From: an uncultured Bacteroidales bacterium
GTDB lineage: Bacteria; Bacteroidota; Bacteroidia; Bacteroidales; JAAYJT01
Assembly: GCA_964419945.1 (NCBI GenBank)
Contig: CAYQRU010000004.1
Coordinates: forward strand, 2,299 to 66,298
Direction of reading: 5' to 3'
DNA: 64,000 bases
Positions 2,107-35,210 of this stretch are shown piece by piece. The notes beneath the pieces were generated by a model. The model did no database searches. It saw only the letters and a list, made by a program, of their open reading frames with translations, and was not told the origin of the DNA. How positions within the stretch are numbered: the first letter of the stretch is position 1; each line of letters starts with the position of its first letter. Both the position numbers and the translations under genes were made by a program.

Positions 2107-2772
2107 ATGAAAAAGTACGCATATTATGTACTCCCGCCTGCAATTTTGATTGCAGCTTTTGTTTTTGTTGCATTTCAACAGGCAACAAAGCCATCTAAGG
2201 CAGATAAATACAAATCTGTAATAATAGGTAATCAGGAATGGATGACAGAAAATCTCAATGTTGACCGTTTTCGTAATGGCGATTTAATCCCTCAGGCAAA
2301 AACTGACCAGGAGTGGAAAATCTTTACGCAACAGGGAAAGCCCGCATGGTGTTTTTATGATAACAATTCCGCCAACGAATTGAAATACGGGAGAATGTAT
2401 AACTGGTTTGCAGTGAGTGACCCGCGCGGTCTGGCACCTGATGGTTGGCGAATTCCGATTGATTATGACTGGAAAGAACTTGGCAGAGCACTTGGTAGTG
2501 AAGAATTGGCCGGATATAAAATGAAATCAAAGAACGGATGGAATGAGAGTGGTAATGGCTCAAACTCAAGCAACTTTAACGGTTTACCGGGTGGCTACCG
2601 CCACTACAACGGGCAATTCAGTTCAGTGGGCGACAATGGATTCTGGTGGAGTGCCGATCTTTACGACAACGATAATGCAAACGCTTGTTATCTCAGCAAA
2701 AGCCTCGATAACTTTTATCGCAACTATTTCAATAAAGGCTACGGTTTTTCGGTTCGTTGCATTAAGGAATAG
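2107..2772 (+). CDS. Fibrobacter succinogenes major paralogous domain (FISUMP) protein with N-terminal anchor
   Basis: IGNQEWMTENLNV, YGRMYNWFAV, GLAPDGWRIP, FNGLPGGYR, GYGFSVRCIKE. Confidence 0.9.
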   Translation: MKKYAYYVLPPAILIAAFVFVAFQQATKPSKADKYKSVIIGNQEWMTENLNVDRFRNGDLIPQAKTDQEWKIFTQQGKPAWCFYDNNSANELKYGRMYNWFAVSDPRGLAPDGWRIPIDYDWKELGRALGSEELAGYKMKSKNGWNESGNGSNSSNFNGLPGGYRHYNGQFSSVGDNGFWWSADLYDNDNANACYLSKSLDNFYRNYFNKGYGFSVRCIKE

Positions 2773-5161
2773 CAATCCTGTTTTGCAGTTTGCCTGAAAA
2801 TATCAATGCCAGGCAATAAGCCAATATTGCGTTTAACATCACACAAGCATATCCGGCTTCAACAGCCAATAGTATCGCAAGCGGTGAAGCTATCACCGAA
2901 AAGCAGCCATTAATGCCCCATGCCCAGGGAACAATGTTGTTGTTACTTTCTGAAATAATCTTCAGTGCCACAGGAAATGGCATTCCCATAAAAAATGCCG
3001 GTAAGGCAATCACCACGAACGCAATGATCGTTTTATAAATTGCTGGCAATCCTATGGTTGCCTTCAGCAAAGGATTCAATCCGGAGAGTATTGCAGTAAA
3101 ACAAATCAGAATAATCAGGAATACAGGCAGCAAATTTTCCTGTGTCATGTTTCGTTTTCCCGAAATGTAACTTCCTGTGCCAGAGGCAATCATCATCATA
3201 GTGATTACCCATGAAGCCGCAATTACCGGCGTTCCAAAATAAATAATGAAGCGCTGAATAAAAATAATTTCAACGAACATGTATCCCAATCCCAAAGTTG
3301 AAAAATAGATGAGTACCGGCAGTTTCCTGTGACTTTTGGATTTTAACCTCAGCAGAGGCAACAAGATAAATAAAATTGCAAAAAATGTTACCTGTATTAA
3401 GGTAACATAAACTATCAGGTAGCCCAGTTCAAGGTAAGGAATTGTCTGACTGTTGTAAAGTGTTCGAAGCAAAGGCAGGGTATTGAGCCGTATGAAATGA
3501 TTGAAATATGGACTGTTATCTGTGGAAGGCTCAATATGAAAGCCATACTGGTCGAAGTTCATATTACTTGCGACAATAGAATCAATGAGACTGAAAAAAA
3601 ACGGATCGCTGAAGACATTGTATTTGTTGCGTTCAGTATCTGTAACTCCTGGTAATAATACCGGATCGAAATAAAGAGAATCGCAAAAAACACGAACCTC
3701 ATTTATTTGTTCTTCCTGAAGCGGTGATTTGGTAACAACAAAGGTAACAGTGCCCCAACTCTTGATCATTACAATGTGTTGCAATATCTTTGAAATGTTG
3801 TTTTCTCTTAGCATTTGAACAAGAGTTGCACAAATTTTCAGGGGAGTCTTTACAGGGTAATCAAGATACGATGATACTGTGAGGCAGCCATTGGGTTTCA
3901 GCGTATTCCACGTTTGGTTGAAACCCTCCAAAGTAAGCAAGTAATTTTCCTGCATGGCGCAGAGTCCTGAGGTGCCTCCAAATGCATCAGGAACAGGCAG
4001 AATAATTATATCATATTGATGTTTCGAAGATGCGAGCAATGTCCGTGAATCAATGGTGTGGACGCGAACGTTTTCGTGACTGTAAAGATATCCTGATTTC
4101 TCTGCCAGGTTGGTTTGCATCATACGAACGAGTGTTTTGTTGGGTTCAGACACAACTACTGCATTAGCTCCGCGGCGCAGAGCCTGGACTGCAAAATATC
4201 CGGTTCCCCCGTTGAGTACCAGTACAGAATCGGGTTTACAAATTGCGTATGGCAATGCAAACGTTGAGTAATCCGGCCATAAATTTGTATGCATATCAGG
4301 TTTGCTGACAATACCCGTAAAATCGCCATTGATAAAAACAGCTGGCAACGCAGGAACTTCGCCCTCGAAAGATAAACTGATTCCTGGCGCATAACGCATT
4401 GCTGTAGAAGTAATCACCTGGTTCAAACCAAAGATACCCGGCTTTTCGTAAATAATTTTTGCATCAGGAAGGTTCATCGCTTTACTCAGACTTTTATATT
4501 GTGAAATGTTTAATGTATAAGGAATTGTCTGGTTGATTAACACTGCGCAAATTAAGCCTGATGAAATAATAATGGCATAAGCAGGCGTAATTCTTTTTAG
4601 TAACAATAATCCGGAAGACACCAAAAGCAATGCGCATAATGATTTGGCTTCCCATGGAAACATCAAATTTAATACGGGTAATGCCAGCAATGCGCCCAAT
4701 CCTGATCCGATAAGGTTCATGAAATATAACCTGCTGATATCGGTAATATACACGGTAAAAATAATTCCGATTGCAAGGGCAGCAAAATAAAAAGGCAGGA
4801 AATATATGATCAGGTTGGTGGCAAGTTTCCAGAAATGATTGTAATCAATAAATAAAAGATACAGATCAAAGGAAAGAAGCTCTGTACCGGCAAGCCTCAG
4901 ACCTGGTTCAAGGCTGAGCCCGGATGCAAAAGCAAATATAGGTAACAGAGTGTTCTTATGTTTGGTAAGTTTATCCCTGAAAATAGAAATTGTCGTTCCT
5001 GCAGCTCCAAAACCGAGAAGGGCTATGGATATAATCATAAATGCAAAATGATGCCATTGCTCATTTGATAGGATTTGCATCAAAGTTATCTGCGAAGCTA
5101 TGACAGCGACTGAAAGTAGAACGAGTGCCAATCCGAATCGCAATGGTAAAACGGGCTTCAT
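2762..5161 (-). CDS. Multi-pass membrane protein with central spermidine-synthase-like / class I SAM-binding domain
   Basis: About 7 N-terminal TM helices, a soluble domain with VLVLNGGTG and YDIIILPVPD, a HIEPSTDNSPYF motif, and about 7 C-terminal TM helices ending WAWGINGCFSV. Confidence 0.75.
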   Translation of the reverse strand: MKPVLPLRFGLALVLLSVAVIASQITLMQILSNEQWHHFAFMIISIALLGFGAAGTTISIFRDKLTKHKNTLLPIFAFASGLSLEPGLRLAGTELLSFDLYLLFIDYNHFWKLATNLIIYFLPFYFAALAIGIIFTVYITDISRLYFMNLIGSGLGALLALPVLNLMFPWEAKSLCALLLVSSGLLLLKRITPAYAIIISSGLICAVLINQTIPYTLNISQYKSLSKAMNLPDAKIIYEKPGIFGLNQVITSTAMRYAPGISLSFEGEVPALPAVFINGDFTGIVSKPDMHTNLWPDYSTFALPYAICKPDSVLVLNGGTGYFAVQALRRGANAVVVSEPNKTLVRMMQTNLAEKSGYLYSHENVRVHTIDSRTLLASSKHQYDIIILPVPDAFGGTSGLCAMQENYLLTLEGFNQTWNTLKPNGCLTVSSYLDYPVKTPLKICATLVQMLRENNISKILQHIVMIKSWGTVTFVVTKSPLQEEQINEVRVFCDSLYFDPVLLPGVTDTERNKYNVFSDPFFFSLIDSIVASNMNFDQYGFHIEPSTDNSPYFNHFIRLNTLPLLRTLYNSQTIPYLELGYLIVYVTLIQVTFFAILFILLPLLRLKSKSHRKLPVLIYFSTLGLGYMFVEIIFIQRFIIYFGTPVIAASWVITMMMIASGTGSYISGKRNMTQENLLPVFLIILICFTAILSGLNPLLKATIGLPAIYKTIIAFVVIALPAFFMGMPFPVALKIISESNNNIVPWAWGINGCFSVIASPLAILLAVEAGYACVMLNAILAYCLALIFSGKLQNRIAIP

Positions 5162-17822: not shown

Positions 17823-17895
17823 CACGGGTGGAGAGGCTCGAACTCCCGACACTCGGTTTTGGAGACCGATGCTCTACCAACTGAGCTACACCCGT
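17823..17895 (-). tRNA. tRNA-Trp(CCA)
   Basis: Cloverleaf ACGGGTG/CACCCGT, anticodon loop CT-CCA-AA, T-loop GTTCGAG. Confidence 0.96.
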
Positions 17896-17967
17896 TTGAA
17901 AACCATCTGTAATTGTTCGTTTTGTAAGGGTTGCTGTATAGCAACCCTTACAAAACTATTCTTATGT

Positions 17968-19155
17968 TTAATCAAGAATTTCAGTGATCTGGCCTGCTCC
18001 AACAGTACGTCCGCCTTCACGAATAGCAAAACGCAATCCCTTATTCAATGCAATTTCATGTATCAGATGAACATGTATTGTCAGGTTGTCGCCAGGCATC
18101 ACCATTTCAACTCCTTCCGGAAGAACGATTTCACCGGTAACATCAGTGGTTCTGAAGTAAAACTGCGGACGATACCTGTTGTGGAAAGGAGTGTGACGCC
18201 CACCTTCTTCCTTCTTCAAAATGTAGACCTCAGCCTTAAACTCTTTATGAGGTTTGATAGAACCTGGTTTGGCAACCACCATACCGCGACGGATAGCATC
18301 TTTATCAATGCCACGCAGCAGCAGTCCTGCATTGTCACCAGCTTCACCTTCGTCAAGAAGTTTGCGGAACATCTCAACACCAGTAACTACTGATTTCAGC
18401 TTTTCGGCACCCAATCCGATAATATCCACCGGCTCACCAACGCGTATGATACCGGTTTCAATTCTTCCGGTAGCAACCGTACCACGTCCAGTAATTGAAA
18501 AAACGTCTTCGACCGGCATCAGGAATTCTTTATCACGGTCGCGCACAGGCAGGGGAATGTAAGTATCAACTGCTGCCATGAGTTCCATTACTTTTTCAAC
18601 CCATTTGGGTTCCTTATTTAATCCGCCTAATGCTGAACCACGAATCACCGGAGCATTATCGCCATCGAAACCGTAGAACGTCAGCAAATCGCGGATTTCC
18701 ATTTCAACAAGTTCGAGAAGTTCTTCATCATCAACCAGGTCAACCTTGTTCATAAAAACAACGAGGCGAGGTACGCCAACCTGACGGGCCAAAAGGATAT
18801 GTTCGCGGGTCTGGGGCATGGGTCCATCAGTTGCAGCTACAACCAGGATAGCGCCATCCATCTGGGCAGCTCCGGTAACCATGTTCTTGATATAGTCAGC
18901 GTGACCCGGACAGTCAACGTGTGCATAATGCCTGTTTTCAGTCTGATATTCAACGTGAGCAGTATTAATGGTAATGCCTCTTTCTTTTTCTTCGGGAGCA
19001 TTATCAATAGAATCAAATGATCTGTACTCGGAAAGTCCCTTTTCAGAAAGAATGAGAGTAATCGCTGCTGTCAGCGTTGTCTTGCCGTGATCAATGTGAC
19101 CAATAGTGCCTACGTTGACGTGCGGCTTCGAACGGGTGAATTTTTCTTTTGCCAT
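17968..19155 (-). CDS. tuf: Elongation factor Tu
   Basis: [32 protein letters not shown]. Confidence 0.99.
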
Positions 19156-19213
19156 ATTGAATTATTATTACTGATTAATAAGAGAAGGTTTTACAATCAA
19201 AAAATTTAAATTG

Positions 19214-19285
19214 AGCCAATGATGAGATTTGAACTCATGACCCCTTCCTTACCAAGGAAGTGCTCTACCCCTGAGCTACATCGGC
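19214..19285 (-). tRNA. tRNA-Thr(GGT)
   Basis: GCCGATG/CATTGGC acceptor stem, anticodon loop TT-GGT-AA. Confidence 0.95.
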
Positions 19286-19294
19286 TGGTGATTG

Positions 19295-19367
19295 AGCGGA
19301 AGACGGGGTTCGAACCCGCTACCTAAAGCTTGGAAGGCTTTCGCTCTGCCAAATGAGCTACTTCCGC
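19295..19367 (-). tRNA. tRNA-Gly(TCC)
   Basis: GCGGAAG/CTTCCGC acceptor stem, anticodon loop CT-TCC-AA. Confidence 0.95.
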
Positions 19368-19379
19368 TTGTTATACCAG

Positions 19380-19461
19380 TGGGGAGAGGAGGATTCGAAC
19401 CTCCGAAGGCTTAGCCAACAGATTTACAGTCTGCCCCATTTGACCGCTCTGGTATCTCCCC
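19380..19461 (-). tRNA. tRNA-Tyr(GTA)
   Basis: GGGGAGA/TCTCCCC acceptor stem, anticodon loop CT-GTA-AA, long variable arm. Confidence 0.95.
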
Positions 19462-19483
19462 TTTTCAACAATTAAAAGAACTG

Positions 19484-19557
19484 AGCCGATAGAGGGATTC
19501 GAACCCCCGACCCGCTGATTACAAATCAGCTGCTCTGGCCAACTGAGCTACATCGGC
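19484..19557 (-). tRNA. tRNA-Thr(TGT)
   Basis: GCCGATG/TATCGGC acceptor stem, anticodon loop TT-TGT-AA. Confidence 0.95.
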
Positions 19558-19688
19558 AATTACTTTTTTCAGCAAGGTCTGTGCTTAGGCAGTAATTATC
19601 TATTTCACCAAACAGTACTGATTTCCCTGCTTTTATGCGCCAATCCCTTGTGTTGCTTATAGAAACAACATTCTGAAAAAAAGGACTG

Positions 19689-19719
19689 CAAAAGTATAAA
19701 ACATTGCTGAATCTGCAAA
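19689..19719 (-). promoter_or_regulatory. Primary-sigma promoter of the tRNA-tuf operon
   Basis: Minus strand TTTG-N19-TACTTTTG matches the Bacteroidota -33/-7 consensus. Confidence 0.75.
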
Positions 19720-19749
19720 ATATATCAAATAATTTTTTTCAGATTCTTA

Positions 19750-20046
19750 TTAACCCCTCAGTTTTTCCTTGTATTTCTTGATCTGTGAACGCAATGCCTC
19801 TACCGCATTATCAATTGCTTCTTCGAAAGTTTTGCATTGCTTCTTGGCAAAAAGATCGTTTCCGCGTACCACCAACCTTATTTCAGCTATTTTATTCTCC
19901 TGTTTGTCGTGGTTATCAAGCTTAAGTATGACTTCACTGGAAATAATTCCTTCATAAAGGCTAACCAGCTTTTCAACTTTCTCCTGAATAAAATCGTCTA
20001 ATTTCTGATCTGTCTTGAAATGAACCGATGAGATCTTTACTTTCAT
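19750..20046 (-). CDS. hpf: Ribosome hibernation promoting factor / RaiA family
   Basis: MKVKISSVHF, FIQEKVEKL, NDLFAKKQCKTFEEAID. Confidence 0.9.
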   Translation of the reverse strand: MKVKISSVHFKTDQKLDDFIQEKVEKLVSLYEGIISSEVILKLDNHDKQENKIAEIRLVVRGNDLFAKKQCKTFEEAIDNAVEALRSQIKKYKEKLRG

Positions 20047-20064
20047 AAGTGCCTCCTTTTGTTT

Positions 20065-20952
20065 TTAAGCTTTCGGATGAGCTTGTTGATAAATTCTTTT
20101 AATTCTTTCGATTGTATTATGAGTGTAAACCTGTGTAGCTGCCAGGCTGGCATGTCCCAATAACTCCTTGACTGCGTTTAGGTCAGCCCCGTTATTCAAC
20201 ATACCTGTTGCAAACGTATGCCTGATGACATGCGGACTTTTCTTTTGCTGCGTTGTGATAAGCTGCAGGTTTTGTTTGACTGTAATATATATGAGTTCCG
20301 GGTAAGCTTTTTTGCCCTTCAGTGTGGTGATCAGGAAGTCTTCGTATGCTATGGCACCAAATACTTTTTCTTTGACAGCAGTGTATTCATTGATCATTGC
20401 GAGTAATTCAGCCCCAAATGGAATCATGCGTTGTTTATTTCGCTTTCCCGTTACTGTAAGGGTCAGTGAGTTATTATCAATGTGTTTGTGCTTTAGATCT
20501 GTAAGCTCGGAAACCCGGATACCTGTGGCATAAAGTAATTCAAGTATCATTTTGGTGCGAAGTCCCCGAAAACTATTCCCAAAAACATCTGAATCAAGTA
20601 ATTGATTTACCCTTGAGGTGTCAAGAAACAACGGCAACCTACCTGGAATTTTGGGAGCAACAACTTTCTGTATTGGATTTACCTGCAGAATGTCACGTTT
20701 AACGAGAAATCTGAAAAACGATTTAAGGGTCGAAAGCTTACGGTTTACCGAACGTGGTGAATTGCCGTTACGGAGAATTTCTCCCAACCAGGAGCGGATA
20801 ATCTGACTGTCGACATCTTCAATCAGGGAAATGCCGTAGGTTGATTGTAGATAATTGCTGAATTGCTCAAGATCAGTCTGGTAGGCAATCAAAGTATGCA
20901 CTGAGTAATGCTTTTCCGCTGCGAGGTAGGTGATGAATTCTTTGGCGTGCAT
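20065..20952 (-). CDS. XerC/XerD-family tyrosine recombinase (start taken at ATG 20952)
   Basis: Catalytic residues intact: ATGIRVSEL, TGKRNKQR, HVIRHTFAT, LLGHASL, TQVYTH; sits in the conserved rpsU-xer-hpf arrangement. Confidence 0.9.
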   Translation of the reverse strand: MHAKEFITYLAAEKHYSVHTLIAYQTDLEQFSNYLQSTYGISLIEDVDSQIIRSWLGEILRNGNSPRSVNRKLSTLKSFFRFLVKRDILQVNPIQKVVAPKIPGRLPLFLDTSRVNQLLDSDVFGNSFRGLRTKMILELLYATGIRVSELTDLKHKHIDNNSLTLTVTGKRNKQRMIPFGAELLAMINEYTAVKEKVFGAIAYEDFLITTLKGKKAYPELIYITVKQNLQLITTQQKKSPHVIRHTFATGMLNNGADLNAVKELLGHASLAATQVYTHNTIERIKRIYQQAHPKA

Positions 20953-21080
20953 ATCAATACAAATATAACAAAACTCTGCTTTTAGCACCTTTCTGAAATC
21001 AGCGGCTAAAATACGGTTTTGTTTTTGTAAAAGCAAATTTTGATTCCGGAATTTGCGATAAAATGCCCGAAACGGGTAAA

Positions 21081-27487: not shown

Positions 27488-27610
27488 GCAGGAGGTTCAG
27501 TACAGCAGATGTTTCATGCAATTGCTGTACTTTTGGCTCCCAAACCCAGACAGAGGGTTGTAGATGAAGTATTTTTTTTTGATAAACATTCTGCTAAAAG
27601 CAATAATTTT

Positions 27611-28492
27611 ATGAAAACCATCCTTGGACAAACCAGTCTTGTTATTACGCTCACCATGATAAGCACTTTTCTTTTTGCTGAGAAACCTGCATACATGCTT
27701 TACGAGGCCAACGGTAAGCCCGTCAAATACTCAAGACTCCTCAAGGATGCCAGGTATGCCGATATCATCCTGTTTGGAGAACTGCACAACAATCCCATCT
27801 GCCATTGGCTGCAACTTGAACTAACCAGGGATATGTATTTGCAGTCGGGTGAGAGACTGATCCTGGGTGCGGAAATGTTTGAAAGCGACAATGCATTGAT
27901 TTTGAGTGAGTATATTACCAATAAGATCAGAACACGCAATTTTGAAGCTGAAGCCAAATTGTGGCCAAATTATAAAACGGATTACAAACCGCTGGTAGAA
28001 TTTGCCCGTGAAAAAGGTATACCTTTCGTAGCAACAAATGTTCCACGGCGCTATGCTGCTGCAGTGAACAGCGGTGGTTTTGAAGCGCTTGAAATCCTTT
28101 CAGAGGAAGCCAGATCGCTCATTGCTCCGCTTCCCGTGGTTTTTGACCCCGAATTACCGCAGTACAAAAAAATGGCCTCGATGATGGGCGGTCAGATGGG
28201 TGATCACAGCAACATTAACATTGTGAAAGCACAGGCGCTGAAAGATGCCACCATGGCACATTTCATTCTGGAAAATTTCGTACCGGGAAAGGTTTTTCTG
28301 CACTTTCACGGCAGTTTCCATACTGATTTCTATGAAGGAATCGTGTGGTACCTGCGGCAGCGGAATCCCTCGCTCAGGATTATCACCATCAGCAGTACGG
28401 AACTCGGTAATATCAGCGATTTCCCTGAAGAACAAAAAGGAGCAGCCGATTATATCATCGCTACACCTGACACAATGACCAAAACCCATTGA
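27611..28492 (+). CDS. ChaN-like (heme/cofactor-binding) exported protein (start taken at ATG 27611)
   Basis: ADIILFGELHNNP, EMFE, FVATNVPRR, AQALKDATMA, HFHGSFH; a TACTTTTG -7 element lies upstream of this start. Confidence 0.75.
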   Translation: MKTILGQTSLVITLTMISTFLFAEKPAYMLYEANGKPVKYSRLLKDARYADIILFGELHNNPICHWLQLELTRDMYLQSGERLILGAEMFESDNALILSEYITNKIRTRNFEAEAKLWPNYKTDYKPLVEFAREKGIPFVATNVPRRYAAAVNSGGFEALEILSEEARSLIAPLPVVFDPELPQYKKMASMMGGQMGDHSNINIVKAQALKDATMAHFILENFVPGKVFLHFHGSFHTDFYEGIVWYLRQRNPSLRIITISSTELGNISDFPEEQKGAADYIIATPDTMTKTH

Positions 28493-29108: not shown

Positions 29109-31508
29109 TCATGGCAGGCGGTCAGGAGTCCATGTTTCTTTACGATCAGTCTGGGATAATCCGTATCCCATTCTCAAAAAGATCAACCTTCCCGGGTTTT
29201 CATTGAGATTGTCGTCAATATACTTCACGTCGAAGATATTATCAATTTGCAGCGATGCGGTGAAGTGTTTCCTGAAGGTCTTGTCAAACCGTATGTTGAT
29301 GATCATATACTCATCGAAACGGTCGGCAAAAAAATACTCTGTATCCCTGGTATTCCATTCATTGATCCAGGTTTTGCCATGAAACTTTGCCAGCACAGAA
29401 GTACTAAAGTATTTTTGCTGCCACCTTATACCACCCGATAATTTATGGGTAGGAAGGTCAGTCAGATATTTCCCTGTCAGCACAGAATCAACAGTAATAT
29501 CTTTCACGTTGTGCCTGATAATCTTAGCTTTTGTAAAAGTGTAGTTGCCAAAACAGGAAAGATCTTCTGTAATGTCAAACCTGATCTCGGTTTCCATACC
29601 GCTGATCCCAACCCGCCCGATATTACTTCTGGAAATTATCGGAGCACGTCTGTAGCCCATATTCACGGTGTCGCCGGTGCTGGTGAAGTACATAAAATCT
29701 TCGCCTATACTATGAAACAGCGAAGCAGTAAGCAGCAGACTATTCCTGACCAAAACATCGCTTCCAAGTTCAAACGCATCAATCAGTTCAGGTTTCAGTC
29801 CTGGATTAGCAATGGCAAAGGTACCCCTTCTGTTTGCGGTACGGCTCAGGTCATCGAGTACCGGGGACCTGAATCCCCTCGCATAAGAAACAAAGATCCT
29901 TGAATTGTCAGCATAATTGAAGCGTAGTGAGAGACGGGGCGACAACGCATCCCAGCTTTTCATGGGCAGGTTGTGTGTTTCATAATTTTTGTAAAAGGCA
30001 ATCGAATAGGAAGGAAAATCAATGGAGAAATGCGCGTCGCTGAAACGGGCGTAATCGTATCTGATTCCGGCATTTAATGCCAGCTTGTTCTTCAGGATCA
30101 CAAACTCGTCCTGGAGGTATACGGCCATGATATCAAGCTTGCCGGAATTTTTAATTATGTCAGTAGAAGTGAAATAGACATCCCGGCCATCTACGGAACC
30201 TGATTTACCGCTCAATCCCGCACTGATTTTGTGTCTGCTGAATCTGTACAGGTCAAAATCCAGGTTCACACCCACATCTTTTCTGGTAGCATCTGCTTCG
30301 TAAAGTTTGTATTCTCCTTCGTTCATGTACTCGTACACCCTGAAATATTTCTCAGTGTTGTTATATATATTCAATTGCCATTTCAGTTGCTTATACATTC
30401 CGCGGTATTTCGTCATCAGAAACAAGGTCTGATGCCGGGAGAAGGCCCCGAAATCATCGAAAACTTTCACCCCGTTCCCGCGTTTGTCATGAAAATACTG
30501 CGCATGAAGTTCCACCTCGTGGTTATCGCCATAATCAAAACCTGTCTTCAATGCTGTGGCATATTCCTCAAGGTAAGCAGGTACAAGAATAGTATCTTCT
30601 TTGGTATGAAATACTTCGGGTGTGGTGATGTAACCATCACTATGTCGCGTATTGGCTGTAAGATCCCAGAAGAATGGCAATTCTCCCTTACCCGTTTTTT
30701 GTGTACCCGAAAATCTTAGATCACCACTAATAGTATTCAGGCTGCCATATTCCAGGTTAATTTCTCCTCCGGGTTTTTCTGAAGGTCGTCTGGTTCTGAT
30801 CTCTATCACACCTCCCATGGCGCTGCTACCGTATTTGGCAGGACCGGGACCTTTGATCACATGTATCTCTTCCAGGTTGTTTTTCTGTAATGCATTCCAG
30901 TTAACCGAACCTCCGTCAGCTTTATTGAGGGGCATTCCATCCATGACCACCAGCGTACGGCTTTGATCATTGGCTGGCATTCCACGCATGGAAACGACTG
31001 CTCTGCTTGAGAAGATACCTGTAGTGCTGCTGCTAATAACTCCTGAAGTAAAATCGAGCATCTGGCTGATGCTTATGGTAGGGGATGTTGTAATTTCCTG
31101 TAGGTCAATTGTGTGAATCCTCTGTGGCTGCTGTAAATGCATCTGAACCTTGTGTGCAATGATCTCAACAGGATCAGCCACAAAAACAGTGTCTTCGAGT
31201 AAGATAGTTACAAAATTTCTTTGCCCGGGTTTTACCTCCACATTGACTTCTTTCTTCTGATAGCCTATATGACTTACAACAACATCATAACTACCAGCAC
31301 CCAGTCCGGAAATGATGAAATTTCCTTCGGCGTCAGATGTACTCCCGGCTTTCCGGTATTTGATGATTATGTTGGCTCCGTTCACAACCTGTCCGGATGA
31401 TGCCGAAATCACTTTTCCATGCAATGATTCCTGCCTGGATTGAGCAAACGAATCAACCCAAAGCATATGAATGATCAACAGGAATAATACAAACTGTATT
31501 TTAACCAT
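29109..31508 (-). CDS. TonB-dependent receptor (non-SusC, BtuB/CirA-like) with carboxypeptidase-regulatory-like N-terminal domain
   Basis: Signal peptide; GKVISASSGQVVNGANII N-domain; plug motifs SMRGM, TLVVMDGMPL, IHVIKGPGPAKYGSSAMGGVI; barrel motifs NPGLKPE, QIDNIFD. Confidence 0.92.
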   Translation of the reverse strand: MVKIQFVLFLLIIHMLWVDSFAQSRQESLHGKVISASSGQVVNGANIIIKYRKAGSTSDAEGNFIISGLGAGSYDVVVSHIGYQKKEVNVEVKPGQRNFVTILLEDTVFVADPVEIIAHKVQMHLQQPQRIHTIDLQEITTSPTISISQMLDFTSGVISSSTTGIFSSRAVVSMRGMPANDQSRTLVVMDGMPLNKADGGSVNWNALQKNNLEEIHVIKGPGPAKYGSSAMGGVIEIRTRRPSEKPGGEINLEYGSLNTISGDLRFSGTQKTGKGELPFFWDLTANTRHSDGYITTPEVFHTKEDTILVPAYLEEYATALKTGFDYGDNHEVELHAQYFHDKRGNGVKVFDDFGAFSRHQTLFLMTKYRGMYKQLKWQLNIYNNTEKYFRVYEYMNEGEYKLYEADATRKDVGVNLDFDLYRFSRHKISAGLSGKSGSVDGRDVYFTSTDIIKNSGKLDIMAVYLQDEFVILKNKLALNAGIRYDYARFSDAHFSIDFPSYSIAFYKNYETHNLPMKSWDALSPRLSLRFNYADNSRIFVSYARGFRSPVLDDLSRTANRRGTFAIANPGLKPELIDAFELGSDVLVRNSLLLTASLFHSIGEDFMYFTSTGDTVNMGYRRAPIISRSNIGRVGISGMETEIRFDITEDLSCFGNYTFTKAKIIRHNVKDITVDSVLTGKYLTDLPTHKLSGGIRWQQKYFSTSVLAKFHGKTWINEWNTRDTEYFFADRFDEYMIINIRFDKTFRKHFTASLQIDNIFDVKYIDDNLNENPGRLIFLRMGYGLSQTDRKETWTPDRLP

Positions 31509-31531: not shown

Positions 31532-32446
31532 TTACTGTTGGATTTTAATGTCCAGTTCCATAAAGCCGTTGTCTGTATTATCATTATGTAAGACTTTAAT
31601 CAGACCCAGTTTTCCGGAAGCTGTCTTAAAAGGTATGATCTTTCCTTCGGTGGCCCATTTGAACTTTTTCTTTCCCCATACTTCGTTGTAGGAGAGGATG
31701 AGAAGGCTATCGTTCTGGGCGGCATCAAATGCTTCGGCAGCAATGGGTGCGCCGTCCACGCTGATATCCCACAGGGTGTAATTACGTGTTTGCCAGGTCA
31801 TGATTGTTGGATAAAAATTTTTCGCATCATCGCTGAAATTATCCATTTCGCCGGGTGACGACAATGTGGGTCCCGGGGGATTATCTTCATTTTTGAAATA
31901 ACAAAGCATATCAACGGCTTGCTGAAACAAATGCGCGGAGTCGACACCGTAAACTTTTCCGGTGGCAGGAATCAAAAACTGCCCGTAATCAGTATTGTTT
32001 TGGAATCCAAGCCTGACAGAGGGGAGATAATAAATCCCTCCAAATAATGAATTGGGGTCTTTATGCACTACAAGACTGATTTCTGCGCTCAGCCTTTCTC
32101 TGTCCATCACTGCAAATAACCAGGTAACGACAGGTTCGACATTCTGAAAAAACGATTTTTCCACATCAACATAAGTAGCATAAAGTGCCGTATCCATTAC
32201 CACCACCGTGTTCCCATCTGCCAGTTTCTTTTTAATGGTGAAGTTGGTGATATGGCTGTCGTCACTGCGTGCCTGAATACCAAAGAAAAGACTATGCCCA
32301 ACTGCAACAGTATCATTGTTTTGTGTATAATATGCACCTGTCTTGAAATTGATTACCGGTGGTTTGTATTTCTTTTCTTTCCTGCAACCCAGAACGATGC
32401 ATACTGCAAGGATAAGGCACCAATATTGAAAAAGTCGCTGATTCAT
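31532..32446 (-). CDS. Uncharacterised surface lipoprotein
   Basis: Lipobox IVLG-C followed by RKEKK; C-terminal IPFKTASGKLGLIKV motif seen in Bacteroidota surface lipoproteins; 23 bp from the TBDR gene. Confidence 0.7.
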   Translation of the reverse strand: MNQRLFQYWCLILAVCIVLGCRKEKKYKPPVINFKTGAYYTQNNDTVAVGHSLFFGIQARSDDSHITNFTIKKKLADGNTVVVMDTALYATYVDVEKSFFQNVEPVVTWLFAVMDRERLSAEISLVVHKDPNSLFGGIYYLPSVRLGFQNNTDYGQFLIPATGKVYGVDSAHLFQQAVDMLCYFKNEDNPPGPTLSSPGEMDNFSDDAKNFYPTIMTWQTRNYTLWDISVDGAPIAAEAFDAAQNDSLLILSYNEVWGKKKFKWATEGKIIPFKTASGKLGLIKVLHNDNTDNGFMELDIKIQQ

Positions 32447-32559: not shown

Positions 32560-33438
32560 TTATCTTACCACTGTCTTGATTGACTTTAGATGGCCATCTT
32601 TTCCAACGCAATTTACAAAGTACACACCGGGCAGGTAATTGTCAATGACCAATTCTTTCATTTCATTGATATTTTTCTCGAAAACAAGCCCACCCCTGGT
32701 ATCATAGATTTTTATACTGGTGGTATTCATCAGATTTTTGATTGCAAAAGTGCCAATGGCAGGATTAGGATATACAACAGGTTCATAAGATTGTTCAATT
32801 TCCCTGATCCCGGTAATGGCTTCACCAGTGATGATAATATTATCTATCAATGTGCTTCCGCCGGGTTGTATGGGATTATTGTTAATATCCAGATTGGATG
32901 CCAATATCCATCTGATGGAAATATTGCTGTTAAGGTTTTCACATTCTGCGGGAAGACTGATGCCATCAACAAATCCATTTTCCCAACTGTCGGTGCATAT
33001 AACGGTTGAGAGTTCATTCCATGGTGATGACCCCGATAATTTATATTGTATTTTAAAGTCTCTTGGGCCTGGTGTTCCGGTTTCTGATTTTTGCCTGCTG
33101 TAAAGCTTAATATTTTTATACCCCGGTGTACGGAATTTCACCATCCAGTAGATGGAATCAGCACCATCGTTCCATCCGGTTGTCTTGGCACATTTATCAG
33201 TACCTCCGTCAAAACCGTTGGCCGTGTAATCAATCTCAAGCTCGAAATAGGAGGGAGTACCGAATGTTCCATATTCACATGACAGGAAGCGGTTCACATT
33301 GGTTGGGATAGCCACATCAGGAAACTCATCTGCAGAATTTTCCGGAAAGATCCATCCCGCGATTGTGTCCTGTGCCAGCATGTTTGCTGAGATCAGCAAT
33401 AAAGCAAGCATTCCTGTGAGCGTCATTTTTCTTTTCAT
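32560..33438 (-). CDS. T9SS type A sorting domain protein with beta-rich N-terminal domain
   Basis: Sec signal (MLA-Q); CTD with VYPNPA, IKIYDTRG, LPGVYFV and terminal KTVVR. Confidence 0.85.
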   Translation of the reverse strand: MKRKMTLTGMLALLLISANMLAQDTIAGWIFPENSADEFPDVAIPTNVNRFLSCEYGTFGTPSYFELEIDYTANGFDGGTDKCAKTTGWNDGADSIYWMVKFRTPGYKNIKLYSRQKSETGTPGPRDFKIQYKLSGSSPWNELSTVICTDSWENGFVDGISLPAECENLNSNISIRWILASNLDINNNPIQPGGSTLIDNIIITGEAITGIREIEQSYEPVVYPNPAIGTFAIKNLMNTTSIKIYDTRGGLVFEKNINEMKELVIDNYLPGVYFVNCVGKDGHLKSIKTVVR

Positions 33439-33565: not shown

Positions 33566-33940
33566 TTATTCGACAATTTTGTTCAGATCATCCATCATTT
33601 TATTGAAATGACTGAGAATGCCTGGTTCAATTTCTTCATAGAGTTTATCAAAAAACTGAACGATTTTTTCTCCTTTGGGTGTAAGCAAAGTCTCTCCGCC
33701 TTTTTTACCTCCCCTTTGTTTGTCAATTAGCTTGAATCCAAGGCGTTCTTCAATATTTTTCAGGTTTTGCCAGGTTTGCCGGTAGCTATAGCCCATGATG
33801 CCAACGGCTGCTTTGAGTGAACCTGTTTCTTTTATCGCTTTGAGTAGTCTCCACTTTCCTTCACCCAGTACACTGATTGAAGCATCCGTTTCGATCCAGA
33901 ACTTATACCGAAGGTGCAGTTGCTGTGGCTTTGGACTCAT
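33566..33940 (-). CDS. ModE-type winged-helix transcriptional regulator (N-terminal domain only; start taken at ATG 33940)
   Basis: LGEGKWRLLKAIKETGSLKAAVGIMGYSYRQTW...QRGGKKGGETLLTPKG matches the ModE DNA-binding domain; no TOBE/molbindin domains. Confidence 0.85.
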   Translation of the reverse strand: MSPKPQQLHLRYKFWIETDASISVLGEGKWRLLKAIKETGSLKAAVGIMGYSYRQTWQNLKNIEERLGFKLIDKQRGGKKGGETLLTPKGEKIVQFFDKLYEEIEPGILSHFNKMMDDLNKIVE

Positions 33941-34087
33941 CTCAATTATTTTTTCACATATTTTTGACAAAGAAACGGGCTGCAACCCTTGTTCAATGCA
34001 GAATCTTTCTATTCAATACGCAATGGATTGATTTTACACATATTTCTCATCAAACAAATTTACAGAATATAAAATTGTTGCATCTTT

Positions 34088-34112
34088 GCGAAATGCAAAA
34101 TTAACATAACGG
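34088..34112 (+). promoter_or_regulatory. Operator candidate 2 (related to site 1)
   Basis: GCGAAATGCAAAATTAACATAACGG matches the reverse complement of site 1 at 20 of 25 positions; it overlaps the end of a CATCTTTG -7-like element, 18 bp before the ATG at 34131. Confidence 0.55.
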
Positions 34113-34130
34113 TTCAAATCTACACATGTC

Positions 34131-35210
34131 ATGACAAAAAAAATGTTATTTTCAATTGCTGCGGTACTGCTGATCTTTGTGCTCGCAGCACAGAAATTTA
34201 TGTCAGAAACCAATTCCGATGCAATCAGCGGCGCAACAAAACCCATGGCAACGGACGGTAACAGTTTGTTTCACAAGACAAAGGAAGTAAGCCTGAAATC
34301 CGGATCGCTTGAGATAGAAGGCGAGGTGCAGTTGCCCGGGAAAGTTGACTTTGATAAATTATACAAAAGGGAAGTATTTATAAAAGAAGCGCTGTTCGAC
34401 AAAACATCAGGCATTGACTTTATCGGTGCATACCGTTATCGGGGTTACTCTCTTTTCGATATATTACATCCATTTATACACCATAAAAAGAACATTGAAA
34501 TATTCCGTCCTGCCATTGATCTTTATGTGATCATTGAAAATTCTGCCGGTGATAATGTTGTATTTAGCTGGTCTGAGATTTTTCATACCAACAATCCTCA
34601 CCAGGTGATGATTGCCACTGAAATGGCACCGGTTGTTCCCTATCGCAAAGAAGTCAGCTACATCACAGGCGATACCTGGAAAGTTGTAGCTTCAAACGAT
34701 TTATTCGCATACCGTGTACTGGTTGATCCCGTTAAGATTGTTGTCCGTTCATTCGACAGGAAAGACTATCCCATAAACAGGGAACTTGATCCGCTTTACA
34801 GTCCTGAAGTGCATGTGCTGCTTCATGAAACCACAATTCTGGACATTAATCCCATTGAGGATGAAAGTAAATACGTCCGGTATTATTCAAGCTTTTACGG
34901 TATGGGTATGGGATATCATCCGGCTAAATATTTTCAGGGACCTACACTTAAAAGCATACTGGAGAATTCTGTTGATCTGTTTGATCCCGGACTGATCCGT
35001 CATGGATTGGTATGTTTTGCAGGCGTGGATGGCTACAGGACTATATTTAGTTTCAGTGAGTTATTCAACCGTACCGACCAGGTATTCGCGATTCTTGCCG
35101 TTGCTGATGATCCAAATGATGGAGGTTTTTACAGGATTTTCCATCCTGCTGAGTTTTATGCCGACCGCTCGGTCAAATCGTTGACTGAGATTTATATGTT
35201 TACACATTAA
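34131..35210 (+). CDS. Exported protein with DxxSGAT motif and two molybdopterin-oxidoreductase-like (MsrP/SO) folds
   Basis: Hydrophobic N-terminus; DAISGAT at aa 30-36; repeat 1 SLEIEGEV..YRGYSLFDIL..GDNVVFSWSEI; repeat 2 FQGPTLKSIL..GVDGYRTIFSFSEL..GGFYRIFHP..DRSVKSLTEI. Confidence 0.6.
   Translation: MTKKMLFSIAAVLLIFVLAAQKFMSETNSDAISGATKPMATDGNSLFHKTKEVSLKSGSLEIEGEVQLPGKVDFDKLYKREVFIKEALFDKTSGIDFIGAYRYRGYSLFDILHPFIHHKKNIEIFRPAIDLYVIIENSAGDNVVFSWSEIFHTNNPHQVMIATEMAPVVPYRKEVSYITGDTWKVVASNDLFAYRVLVDPVKIVVRSFDRKDYPINRELDPLYSPEVHVLLHETTILDINPIEDESKYVRYYSSFYGMGMGYHPAKYFQGPTLKSILENSVDLFDPGLIRHGLVCFAGVDGYRTIFSFSELFNRTDQVFAILAVADDPNDGGFYRIFHPAEFYADRSVKSLTEIYMFTH

Follow-up and report, generated by a model that had tools for sequence, protein, structure and literature searches.

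The window, i.e., the whole stretch of 64,000 nucleotides that was analysed, covers positions 2,299 to 66,298 of contig CAYQRU010000004.1 from an uncultured Bacteroidales bacterium (GCA_964419945.1). The subject of this analysis is the open reading frame (ORF) at 34131-35210 on the forward strand. It encodes an exported protein of 359 amino acids, with the stop codon within the coordinates, and the overlapping ORFs in other frames were short and unsupported. The protein is probably, by a modest balance of the evidence, a flavinylated accessory protein of tungsten and molybdenum (W/Mo) acquisition that is comprised of tandem PruR-type domains. What computation established is the fold, the lost Cys ligand, the conserved flavinylation motif and the genomic association. 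As far as computation can go, these results supported the interpretation of an earlier note on this DNA, which had described a non-catalytic periplasmic protein with a sulfite oxidase (SUOX)-like fold and covalent flavin mononucleotide (FMN), possibly acting on an imported metal complex. The features of the gene were assigned as follows.

34131-35210, forward strand: the whole ORF, an exported tandem PruR/SUOX-like protein (ORF call, 242 homologues, AlphaFold2 model).
34131-34199, forward strand: Sec-type signal or anchor, residues 1-23, with no RR (read from the sequence).
34218-34238, forward strand: DAISGAT, residues 30-36, ApbE-type D-x-x-[ST]-G-A-[ST] motif with Thr36 as predicted FMN acceptor (motif match, conservation).
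34284-34760, forward strand: repeat 1, a degenerate SUOX-like domain, approximately residues 52-210 (hhalign, MsrP alignment, PF00174 on the N-terminal halves of relatives).
34782-35207, forward strand: repeat 2, a PruR-like truncated SUOX domain, residues 218-359 (AlphaFold2 domain model and Foldseek).
34899-34919, forward strand: GMGMGYH loop, residues 257-263, at the position of the SUOX hairpin with the Mo-ligating Cys (conservation, MsrP register).
35013-35015, forward strand: Cys295 (LVCFAG), the sole Cys of the protein (sequence).
35028-35039, forward strand: D300-G301-Y302-R303, a near-universal motif of the superfamily (conservation in alignments).

The N-terminus, MTKKMLFSIAAVLLIFVLAAQKF, was read straight from the sequence as a hydrophobic Sec-type signal or anchor. 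In the test for a twin-arginine (Tat) signal, no RR was present in the N-terminus (MTKKMLFSIAAVLL...), and the homologues showed Sec/signal peptidase II lipoprotein signals. The single Cys in LVCFAG, the position of DAISGAT at residues 30-36 and the missing RR motif were all as the earlier note had described them. The lipobox residue C21 is at least 90% conserved in the alignment of close homologues and is absent from the window copy. The window copy and its closest relatives (L010 and L011) have LAAQKF or LTAQKF, whereas most homologues have a lipobox, e.g., LQSC. Because LAAQKF or LTAQKF replaces the lipobox, the protein of the window lineage is probably not lipidated, but soluble or held by an uncleaved signal sequence. 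Its predicted location is extracytosolic, and it would be accessible to periplasmic ApbE.

The window protein had zero matches in Pfam and NCBIfam, even at E <= 1. It did not give a gathering-score match to PF00174 (Oxidored_molyb, the molybdenum cofactor (Moco) domain of the sulfite oxidase family), and the FMN_bind profile (PF04205) did not match it in the Pfam scan. Whether the query was the protein, the profile of the family or that of repeat 2, sequence searches of the PDB returned nothing meaningful, and no description of the family was found in literature searches. In a collection of 5.8 billion proteins, 242 homologues of approximately 355-365 amino acids were detected, all unnamed or "hypothetical", and the named homologues came from metagenome-assembled genomes (MAGs) of Bacteroidales or Bacteroidota. 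A scan of GTDB species representatives gave 80 family loci, almost all from uncultured Bacteroidales, Lentimicrobiaceae, Prolixibacteraceae, Rikenellaceae, Tenuifilaceae or Saprospiraceae, with Perlabentimonas gracilis as the sole cultured species. By profile search of 1.84 billion cluster representatives, 309 relatives were collected. PF00174 was matched by 38 of the 89 full-length representatives (best E = 3.5e-13), and these matches fell on both halves of the tandem module. The family was therefore assigned to the SUOX superfamily, of which it is, by these profile matches, a divergent and duplicated branch lying under the detection limit of Pfam in the clade of the window protein.

The two internal repeats that the earlier note had seen were borne out. 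Plain BLASTP of half against half was weak (22% identity over 76 amino acids, E = 0.003). When profiles were made from the 89 superfamily members, hhalign aligned the N-repeat with the C-repeat over 136 columns at a probability of 99.3% and E = 1.6e-20. As judged at the profile level, the internal duplication is decisive.

AlphaFold2 (AF2), run on an alignment of 42 sequences, gave a confident two-domain model with a predicted local distance difference test score (pLDDT) of 87 and a predicted template modelling (TM) score of 0.82. In this model only residues 24-46, DAISGAT included, were disordered (pLDDT <50). Foldseek against the PDB returned only spurious matches for the full-length model (TM 0.1-0.2), and repeat 2 had to be split out. 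Modelled alone (residues 218-359, AF2 pLDDT 83), repeat 2 was best matched by the PruR structures 7KOM, 7KP2, and 7KOS, all with probability 1.00, E = 4.7e-6 to 8.5e-4 and TM 0.55-0.64. The best of them was 7KOM (E = 4.7e-6, TM 0.61/0.64). SoxC of SoxCD (2XTS) also matched, with probability 0.93 and TMq 0.55, and a profile of the remote group matched SorA and YedY weakly (E = 0.011 and 0.88). The modelled protein thus has the SUOX fold in a truncated form. The SUOX-like fold proposed in the earlier note stood for the repeat-2 model and for the relatives that match PF00174, but the full-length Foldseek search gave only noise.

PruR is a periplasmic protein with a truncated SUOX fold and no Mo-ligating Cys (PMC11194511). 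It binds a pterin ring that is sandwiched by Y104 and W160 and hydrogen-bonded by N102; Y104 is also conserved among SUOX enzymes (PMC11194511). In some PruR groups, N102 is replaced by Asp (PMC13259868). It is reasonable to consider D300-G301-Y302 as a possible equivalent of the pterin-contacting N/D102-x-Y104 of PruR. A residue-level alignment to PruR was not obtained, and the sequence bridge via MsrP did not reach PruR. In the repeat-repeat alignment, repeat 1 has A-G-D/E-N (A-G-D-N in the window protein) where repeat 2 has D-G-Y-R, and therefore the stacking Tyr is kept in repeat 2 only. The SUOX-type R...DR.VK residues are kept in repeat 2.

The position of the missing Mo ligand was read from MsrP of E. 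coli K-12. The N-repeat profile of the superfamily matched MsrP over 62 residues (MsrP 113-174, 14.6 bits), and the Mo ligand Cys146 fell opposite a non-Cys loop, approximately T92-G94 of the window protein, in repeat 1. With the C-repeat profile, only W-x-G-x-x-L aligned (MsrP 156-173, -1.7 bits), which is not significant by itself. By this register Cys146 falls on a Gly-rich loop, F-Y-G-M-G-M-G-Y-H, at residues 255-263. The GMGMGYH segment at the Cys position has G257, M258, G259, M260, G261, and H263 conserved, and the superfamily pattern is GxGxGxHG; PruR has a PW motif there. The loop showed low pLDDT in the model and is a candidate ligand-binding loop. Because both SUOX domains lost the Mo-ligating Cys, they cannot be Moco enzymes.

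The remaining Cys had been dismissed in the earlier note as not being at the Mo-ligand position. The position was right, as MsrP Cys146 faces non-Cys loops, but the dismissed residue proved invariant in its clade, i.e., among 42 aligned close homologues. This invariance, together with the distant PF00174 homology, would suit a true Moco enzyme of the MsrP or sulfite oxidase type in which Cys295 serves as an alternative Mo ligand. Such an enzyme is very improbable. C295 is missing from more distant members, including those still bearing the SGAT motif, e.g., P0126 and P0127, and from the alignments it is a clade-level feature. It is located outside the ligand hairpin, in the strand just ahead of D-G-Y. 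The window protein also has no Tat signal and no score against PF00174, and its fold is of the truncated PruR type. Cys295 as a universal catalytic residue was ruled out, since it is not conserved beyond the close clade.

The motif DAISGAT agrees exactly with the published minimal ApbE motif (PMC12052999). ApbE recognizes D-x-x-[S/T]-G-A-[S/T], of which seven residues suffice, and flavinylation is most efficient on N- or C-terminal tags, i.e., on unstructured termini (PMC12052999). The SGAT motif singled out in the earlier note was found to be conserved. In the close-homologue alignment, no substitution occurs at D30, G34, or A35, and A31 is kept in at least 90% of the sequences; position 33, like position 36, is S or T throughout. 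The form D-x-x-[ST]-G-[AS]-[ST] was present in the first 80 residues of 117 of the 120 close homologues; two of the exceptions have Pro for Ala and one is a fragment. A survey of genomic context was made over 86 loci. In these the strict motif occurred in 74 of 88 family ORFs vs. only 1 of 1144 neighbouring ORFs. It was placed 5-9 residues after the lipobox Cys in 61 of the 73 motif-bearing locus copies, and 12 copies, the window's included, have a signal or anchor without the lipobox Cys. The motif recurs in the divergent branches P0141, P0148, P0152, and P0224. Many remote relatives lack it and show a plain gap at its position.

The known ApbE substrates are FMN_bind, NqrB/RnfD, DUF2271, DUF3570, Flavodoxin_4, and FMN reductase proteins (PMC8238504, PMC11334425), and less prevalent substrates were described as still unidentified (PMC8238504). 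Flavinylated proteins co-localise with iron transporters and were proposed to be assimilatory reductases (PMC8238504). These proteins beside iron transporters are the nearest precedent for the role proposed here. A perfect ApbE motif is placed on a flexible tether, and therefore the mature protein most likely carries FMN on Thr36. We hold covalent FMN on this protein in vivo to be likely from the motif and its conservation.

The genes and sites around the ORF were assigned as follows.

33566-33985, reverse strand: divergent winged helix-turn-helix (HTH) regulator of the ModE N-terminal type, 139 amino acids, with no Mop/TOBE domain (PF00126; TIGR00637, E = 1.7e-19).
34085-34099 (extended 34078-34100), no strand: palindrome TTTGC-N5-GCAAA, a candidate operator in the divergent promoter, approximately 46 nt upstream of the start codon.
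32560-33438, reverse strand: protein of 292 amino acids with a type IX secretion system (T9SS) C-terminal sorting domain, a local partner only (8 loci).
31532-32446, reverse strand: lipoprotein of 304 amino acids without Pfam or NCBIfam match, a recurrent partner family (25 loci, 48 ORFs).
29109-31508, reverse strand: TonB-dependent receptor with a CarboxypepD_reg N-terminal domain (Pfam/NCBIfam).

The regulator was also matched by E. coli ModE. Its count was restricted to the 77 loci with enough sequence, and in 35 of them a ModE-like gene lies directly upstream, always divergent; in four further loci it is convergent downstream. The palindrome TTTGC-N5-GCAAA often extends to about TGCAATTTTGC-N5-GCAAAATTGCA and sits 34-58 nt upstream of the start codon of the family gene across loci. 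With one mismatch or fewer, it was found in 14 of 39 HTH-containing loci vs. 4 of 41 others. A second palindrome, ATTTA-N9-TAAAT, was found in 17 of 39 vs. 4 of 41. In the 1.36 Mb of loci there were 18 exact copies of TTTGC-N5-GCAAA, of which 13 were at the 5' end of the family gene, and this suggests that the gene and the regulator are dedicated to each other. Either palindrome could serve the divergent ModE-like regulator as an operator. From ModE homology, the effector of the regulator may be W/Mo, possibly via Mop. The extended palindrome was also observed in L010, L011, L065, L077, and others, and TTTGC-N5-GCAAA overlaps a possible Bacteroidetes -33 TTTG element.

A homologous TonB-dependent receptor was found within 5 kb in 52 of the 86 loci. 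The lipoprotein at 31532-32446 may capture the substrate for the receptor; members of its family often occur as two paralogues beside the receptor. A ChaN haem-binding-type lipoprotein gene (27509-28492, forward strand) flanks the receptor cluster and is kept in 3 loci. The ChaN and T9SS-sorted proteins are confined to the closest loci (3 and 8, respectively) and are therefore probably not core components. A link to haem, suggested by ChaN and by TonB-hemin as the best match of the receptor, was rejected, because ChaN is restricted to 3 loci that are closely related and the receptor does not reach any curated cutoff.

The genes of W/Mo uptake recur in the same survey. A substrate-binding protein (SBP) gene was present in 18 loci, ModB-/ModC-like genes in about 8, and a small TOBE protein gene directly downstream in 4. 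By NCBIfam typing, the binding proteins are WtpA (TIGR03730, 278-296 bits vs. the curated cutoff of 242.75), the permease is nearest to WtpB, and the TOBE protein is Mop (81 bits vs. the cutoff of 55). Some of these arrangements are operonic. In L048, L054, and L066 the order is SBP, permease, ATPase and then the family gene, with 17-33 bp between the last two. In L043, L053, and L086 the family gene is directly followed by permease and ATPase genes, and in L052 an SBP gene follows at +9 bp. P0141 (L096 2205-4076) is a natural fusion, in which a lipobox and DAFSGST module is joined to a WtpA domain (288 bits).

Around the very remote relative P0202, genes were found for a TonB-dependent receptor, ExbB-ExbD-TonB and FmdE, along with two SBP_bac_11 genes. 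Among the 89 superfamily representatives, 15 fuse the tandem module to a C-terminal CbiF-like precorrin methylase (PDB 4E16, E = 2.4e-21). These fusions (P0202, P0200, P0211, P0222, and others; L092 8001-9758) have signal-like N-termini. The Rfam search of the window and four loci detected no Moco riboswitch or other RNA, only tRNAs.

We consider it quite likely that the protein works in W/Mo acquisition. The idea of an imported metal in the earlier note fits this context of ModE-like regulator, TonB-dependent receptor, WtpABC, Mop and the WtpA fusion.

The proposed mechanism is as follows. The gene is paired divergently with the ModE-type regulator within a probable tungstate/molybdate acquisition locus. 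Its product is a predicted extracytoplasmic protein, in the family usually lipid-anchored, of two PruR-type truncated SUOX domains, of which only the second keeps D-G-Y-R and R...DR.VK, presumably matching the pterin pocket. A flexible N-terminal tether bears the ApbE motif, with FMN most likely covalent on Thr36. When W/Mo is limiting, the protein would work in the periplasm, after the outer-membrane receptor and ahead of WtpA. The tethered flavin, as a benzo-pteridine, would plausibly dock in the vestigial pterin cleft of repeat 2 and process the incoming W/Mo species redox-wise or release it, and WtpA would then bind the free oxyanion. This flavin redox or release step between receptor and WtpA, together with the cleft docking, is doubtful, although conceivable. 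Still less should be staked on the full form of the idea, i.e., a covalent flavoprotein derived from a Moco-free SUOX fold, with FMN in the pterin cleft, as an obligatory periplasmic redox step of TonB-dependent W/Mo acquisition, which we judge quite unlikely. The reaction could be an oxidative desulfuration of thiotungstate/thiomolybdate, or the metal could be freed from a metallophore by reduction, in either case before it is passed to WtpA.

Several results weigh against the flavinylated accessory protein or against parts of its mechanism. The apbE gene is not encoded in the 64-kb window, and with E. coli ApbE as seed it was found within 10 kb in just 1 of the 86 loci, so that apbE linkage was rejected. 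Since NQR and RNF, both common in Bacteroidota, are also served by ApbE, the missing linkage does not count strongly against flavinylation. Outside the SGAT motif itself, no residue was found to co-vary with it. Unbiased clustering of the neighbours in the 86 loci gave no recurrent membrane electron donor, and tungstate and molybdate uptake normally proceeds without redox chemistry. Relatives without the motif share the W/Mo context: L086 lies within a WtpB/C/A-type cluster, P0131 is followed by a TOBE gene, and P0202 has the locus described above. The core function of the module can therefore do without the flavin. The correspondence with the pocket residues of PruR was drawn by resemblance and not from an alignment, and in about half of the loci there is no HTH gene. 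The 64 kb of the window contain no wtpABC, and therefore the link to W/Mo depends here on the ModE-like regulator, the receptor and the orthologues.

The lone ApbE homologue is in L088, an Aminicenantes MAG, approximately 6.6 kb downstream of the family gene. The family copy there is without the SGAT motif, and therefore the proximity is probably coincidental. As for a conserved electron-donor gene (NapH-like, PepSY, MsrQ or DsbD), this candidate was rejected because none recurs across loci. NapH-like proteins are a flavinylation-associated electron conduit. In L001 1-5678, the genes past that for WtpA encode two PQQ_2 beta-propeller proteins, one NapH-like Fer4_5 protein and another ferredoxin-like protein; the NapH-like gene is a single case, seen in L001 only.

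Part of this evidence would suit a binder without redox activity. In such a protein, the tandem module would hold a W/Mo oxyanion, or a pterin or metallophore complex, and pass it to WtpA, and S/T-G-A-S/T would be a loop for anion binding or docking rather than a flavin site. The W/Mo context retained by motif-less relatives, the lack of apbE linkage and of a conserved electron donor, the many invariant Arg, Lys, and His residues, and the existence of a WtpA fusion are all in line with it. However, all seven motif positions fit the ApbE consensus, the leading Asp included. The motif is also part of a disordered tether rather than of a folded pocket, and it is specific to the family in the counts given above (74/88 vs. 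1/1144). We regard the non-redox binder as rather unlikely.

The structural matches bring in another explanation, a PruR-like pterin sensor. The protein would bind excreted or periplasmic pterin and let a partner know its redox state, in the way that PruR signals to DcpA, and the W/Mo genes would reflect sensing of Moco or pterin status. PruR is the best structural match, D-G-Y resembles the N/D-x-Y pterin contact of PruR, and both are periplasmic proteins without the Mo-ligating Cys. However, no partner with a DcpA/DTB-type periplasmic domain, or any sensor, recurs in the 86 loci, and the adjoining regulator is a cytoplasmic HTH protein. The tandem architecture and flavin tag are unlike PruR, and the gene is operonic with ABC transporter genes. 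A sensor of this kind is improbable.

The protein could also be thought of as a periplasmic carrier that salvages molybdopterin, Moco or the tungsten cofactor from the TonB-dependent receptor, with the flavin keeping the pterin reduced. SUOX is a Moco-binding fold, its R...DR.VK motifs are kept in repeat 2, and a TonB-dependent receptor with lipoproteins is the arrangement of vitamin-scavenging loci. Truncated domains of the PruR type, however, are without the deep cleft needed for Moco (PMC11194511). The tight WtpABC linkage and the WtpA fusion point to free oxyanion, and no Moco-related gene recurs nearby. Only a low probability is given to cofactor carriage.

Two other parts of the window were observed. 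An ORF of 799 amino acids (2762-5161, reverse strand) had no Pfam match at E <= 1e-4 and lies beside a Fib_succ_major-domain protein and a PCMT methyltransferase. At 17823-21036, five tRNA genes were found around EF-Tu, and a tyrosine recombinase/integrase gene (20065-21036) adjoins. The recombinase near the tRNA cluster could be a marker of an integration hotspot or an XerC/D-like housekeeping gene.

Uptake of W/Mo is pictured as an ABC transporter (Mod, Wtp or Tup) with ModE and Mop. What is new here is the tandem architecture, the predicted ApbE substrate class and the unreported association with tungstate/molybdate uptake. The protein would be a new class of ApbE substrate on a new fold. 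If the full form of the idea, with an obligatory redox step, is true, neither a redox enzyme nor a TonB-dependent route will have been described for W/Mo uptake before it. Among PruR-type proteins, it would be the first tandem, non-proteobacterial and non-signalling variant. It illustrates the reuse of a Moco-binding fold without Moco. It would also bear on W/Mo homeostasis in anaerobic Bacteroidales of sediments and digesters, where sulfide limits the availability of these metals.

Of the known systems, PruR is a closer analogue than MsrP. The PruR proteins of Agrobacterium, Vibrio, and Klebsiella (7KOS, 7KOM, and 7KP2) share with this protein an exported, truncated SUOX fold without the Mo-ligating Cys, although similarity in sequence was not detectable. 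PruR is a single domain of approximately 170 amino acids, whereas the protein studied here has two homologous domains in 359 amino acids and an ApbE tag. PruR is found in Proteobacteria, in an operon with DcpA/DTB sensors (WX7E periplasmic domain). The present family, in contrast, comes from MAGs of anaerobic Bacteroidales type, and its neighbours are ModE-like, TonB-dependent receptor and WtpABC genes but no sensor partner. The Moco enzymes MsrP/YedY and SUOX (PF00174) are distant homologues and, like it, periplasmic. Unlike MsrP/YedY, it is without the Mo-ligating Cys, a Tat signal, a PF00174 match of its own or an MsrQ-like partner, and its domain is truncated and duplicated.

The ApbE substrates, i.e., FMN_bind (including NqrC, RnfG, and PplA), NqrB/RnfD, DUF2271, and others, are extracytosolic and bear D-x-x-[ST]-G-A-[ST], as does this protein. 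Its fold is unrelated to any of the listed substrate classes. In known substrates the motif is inside a folded FMN-binding domain, but here it is on an N-terminal tether just past the lipobox position. Unlike those of the known substrates, the gene is linked neither to apbE nor to a gene for transmembrane electron transfer. Genes for DUF2271 and FMN_bind proteins are found next to those for iron uptake, whereas the metal associated with this family is W/Mo and not Fe. As for the uptake systems themselves, we know of no accessory protein of the SUOX/PruR fold, flavoprotein or TonB-dependent outer-membrane step in the described Mod, Wtp, and Tup systems, and the literature searches found no TonB-dependent or flavin-dependent route of W/Mo uptake. 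With WtpABC/ModABC, ModE and Mop, the family shares loci and operons and, in one case, a natural fusion to WtpA.

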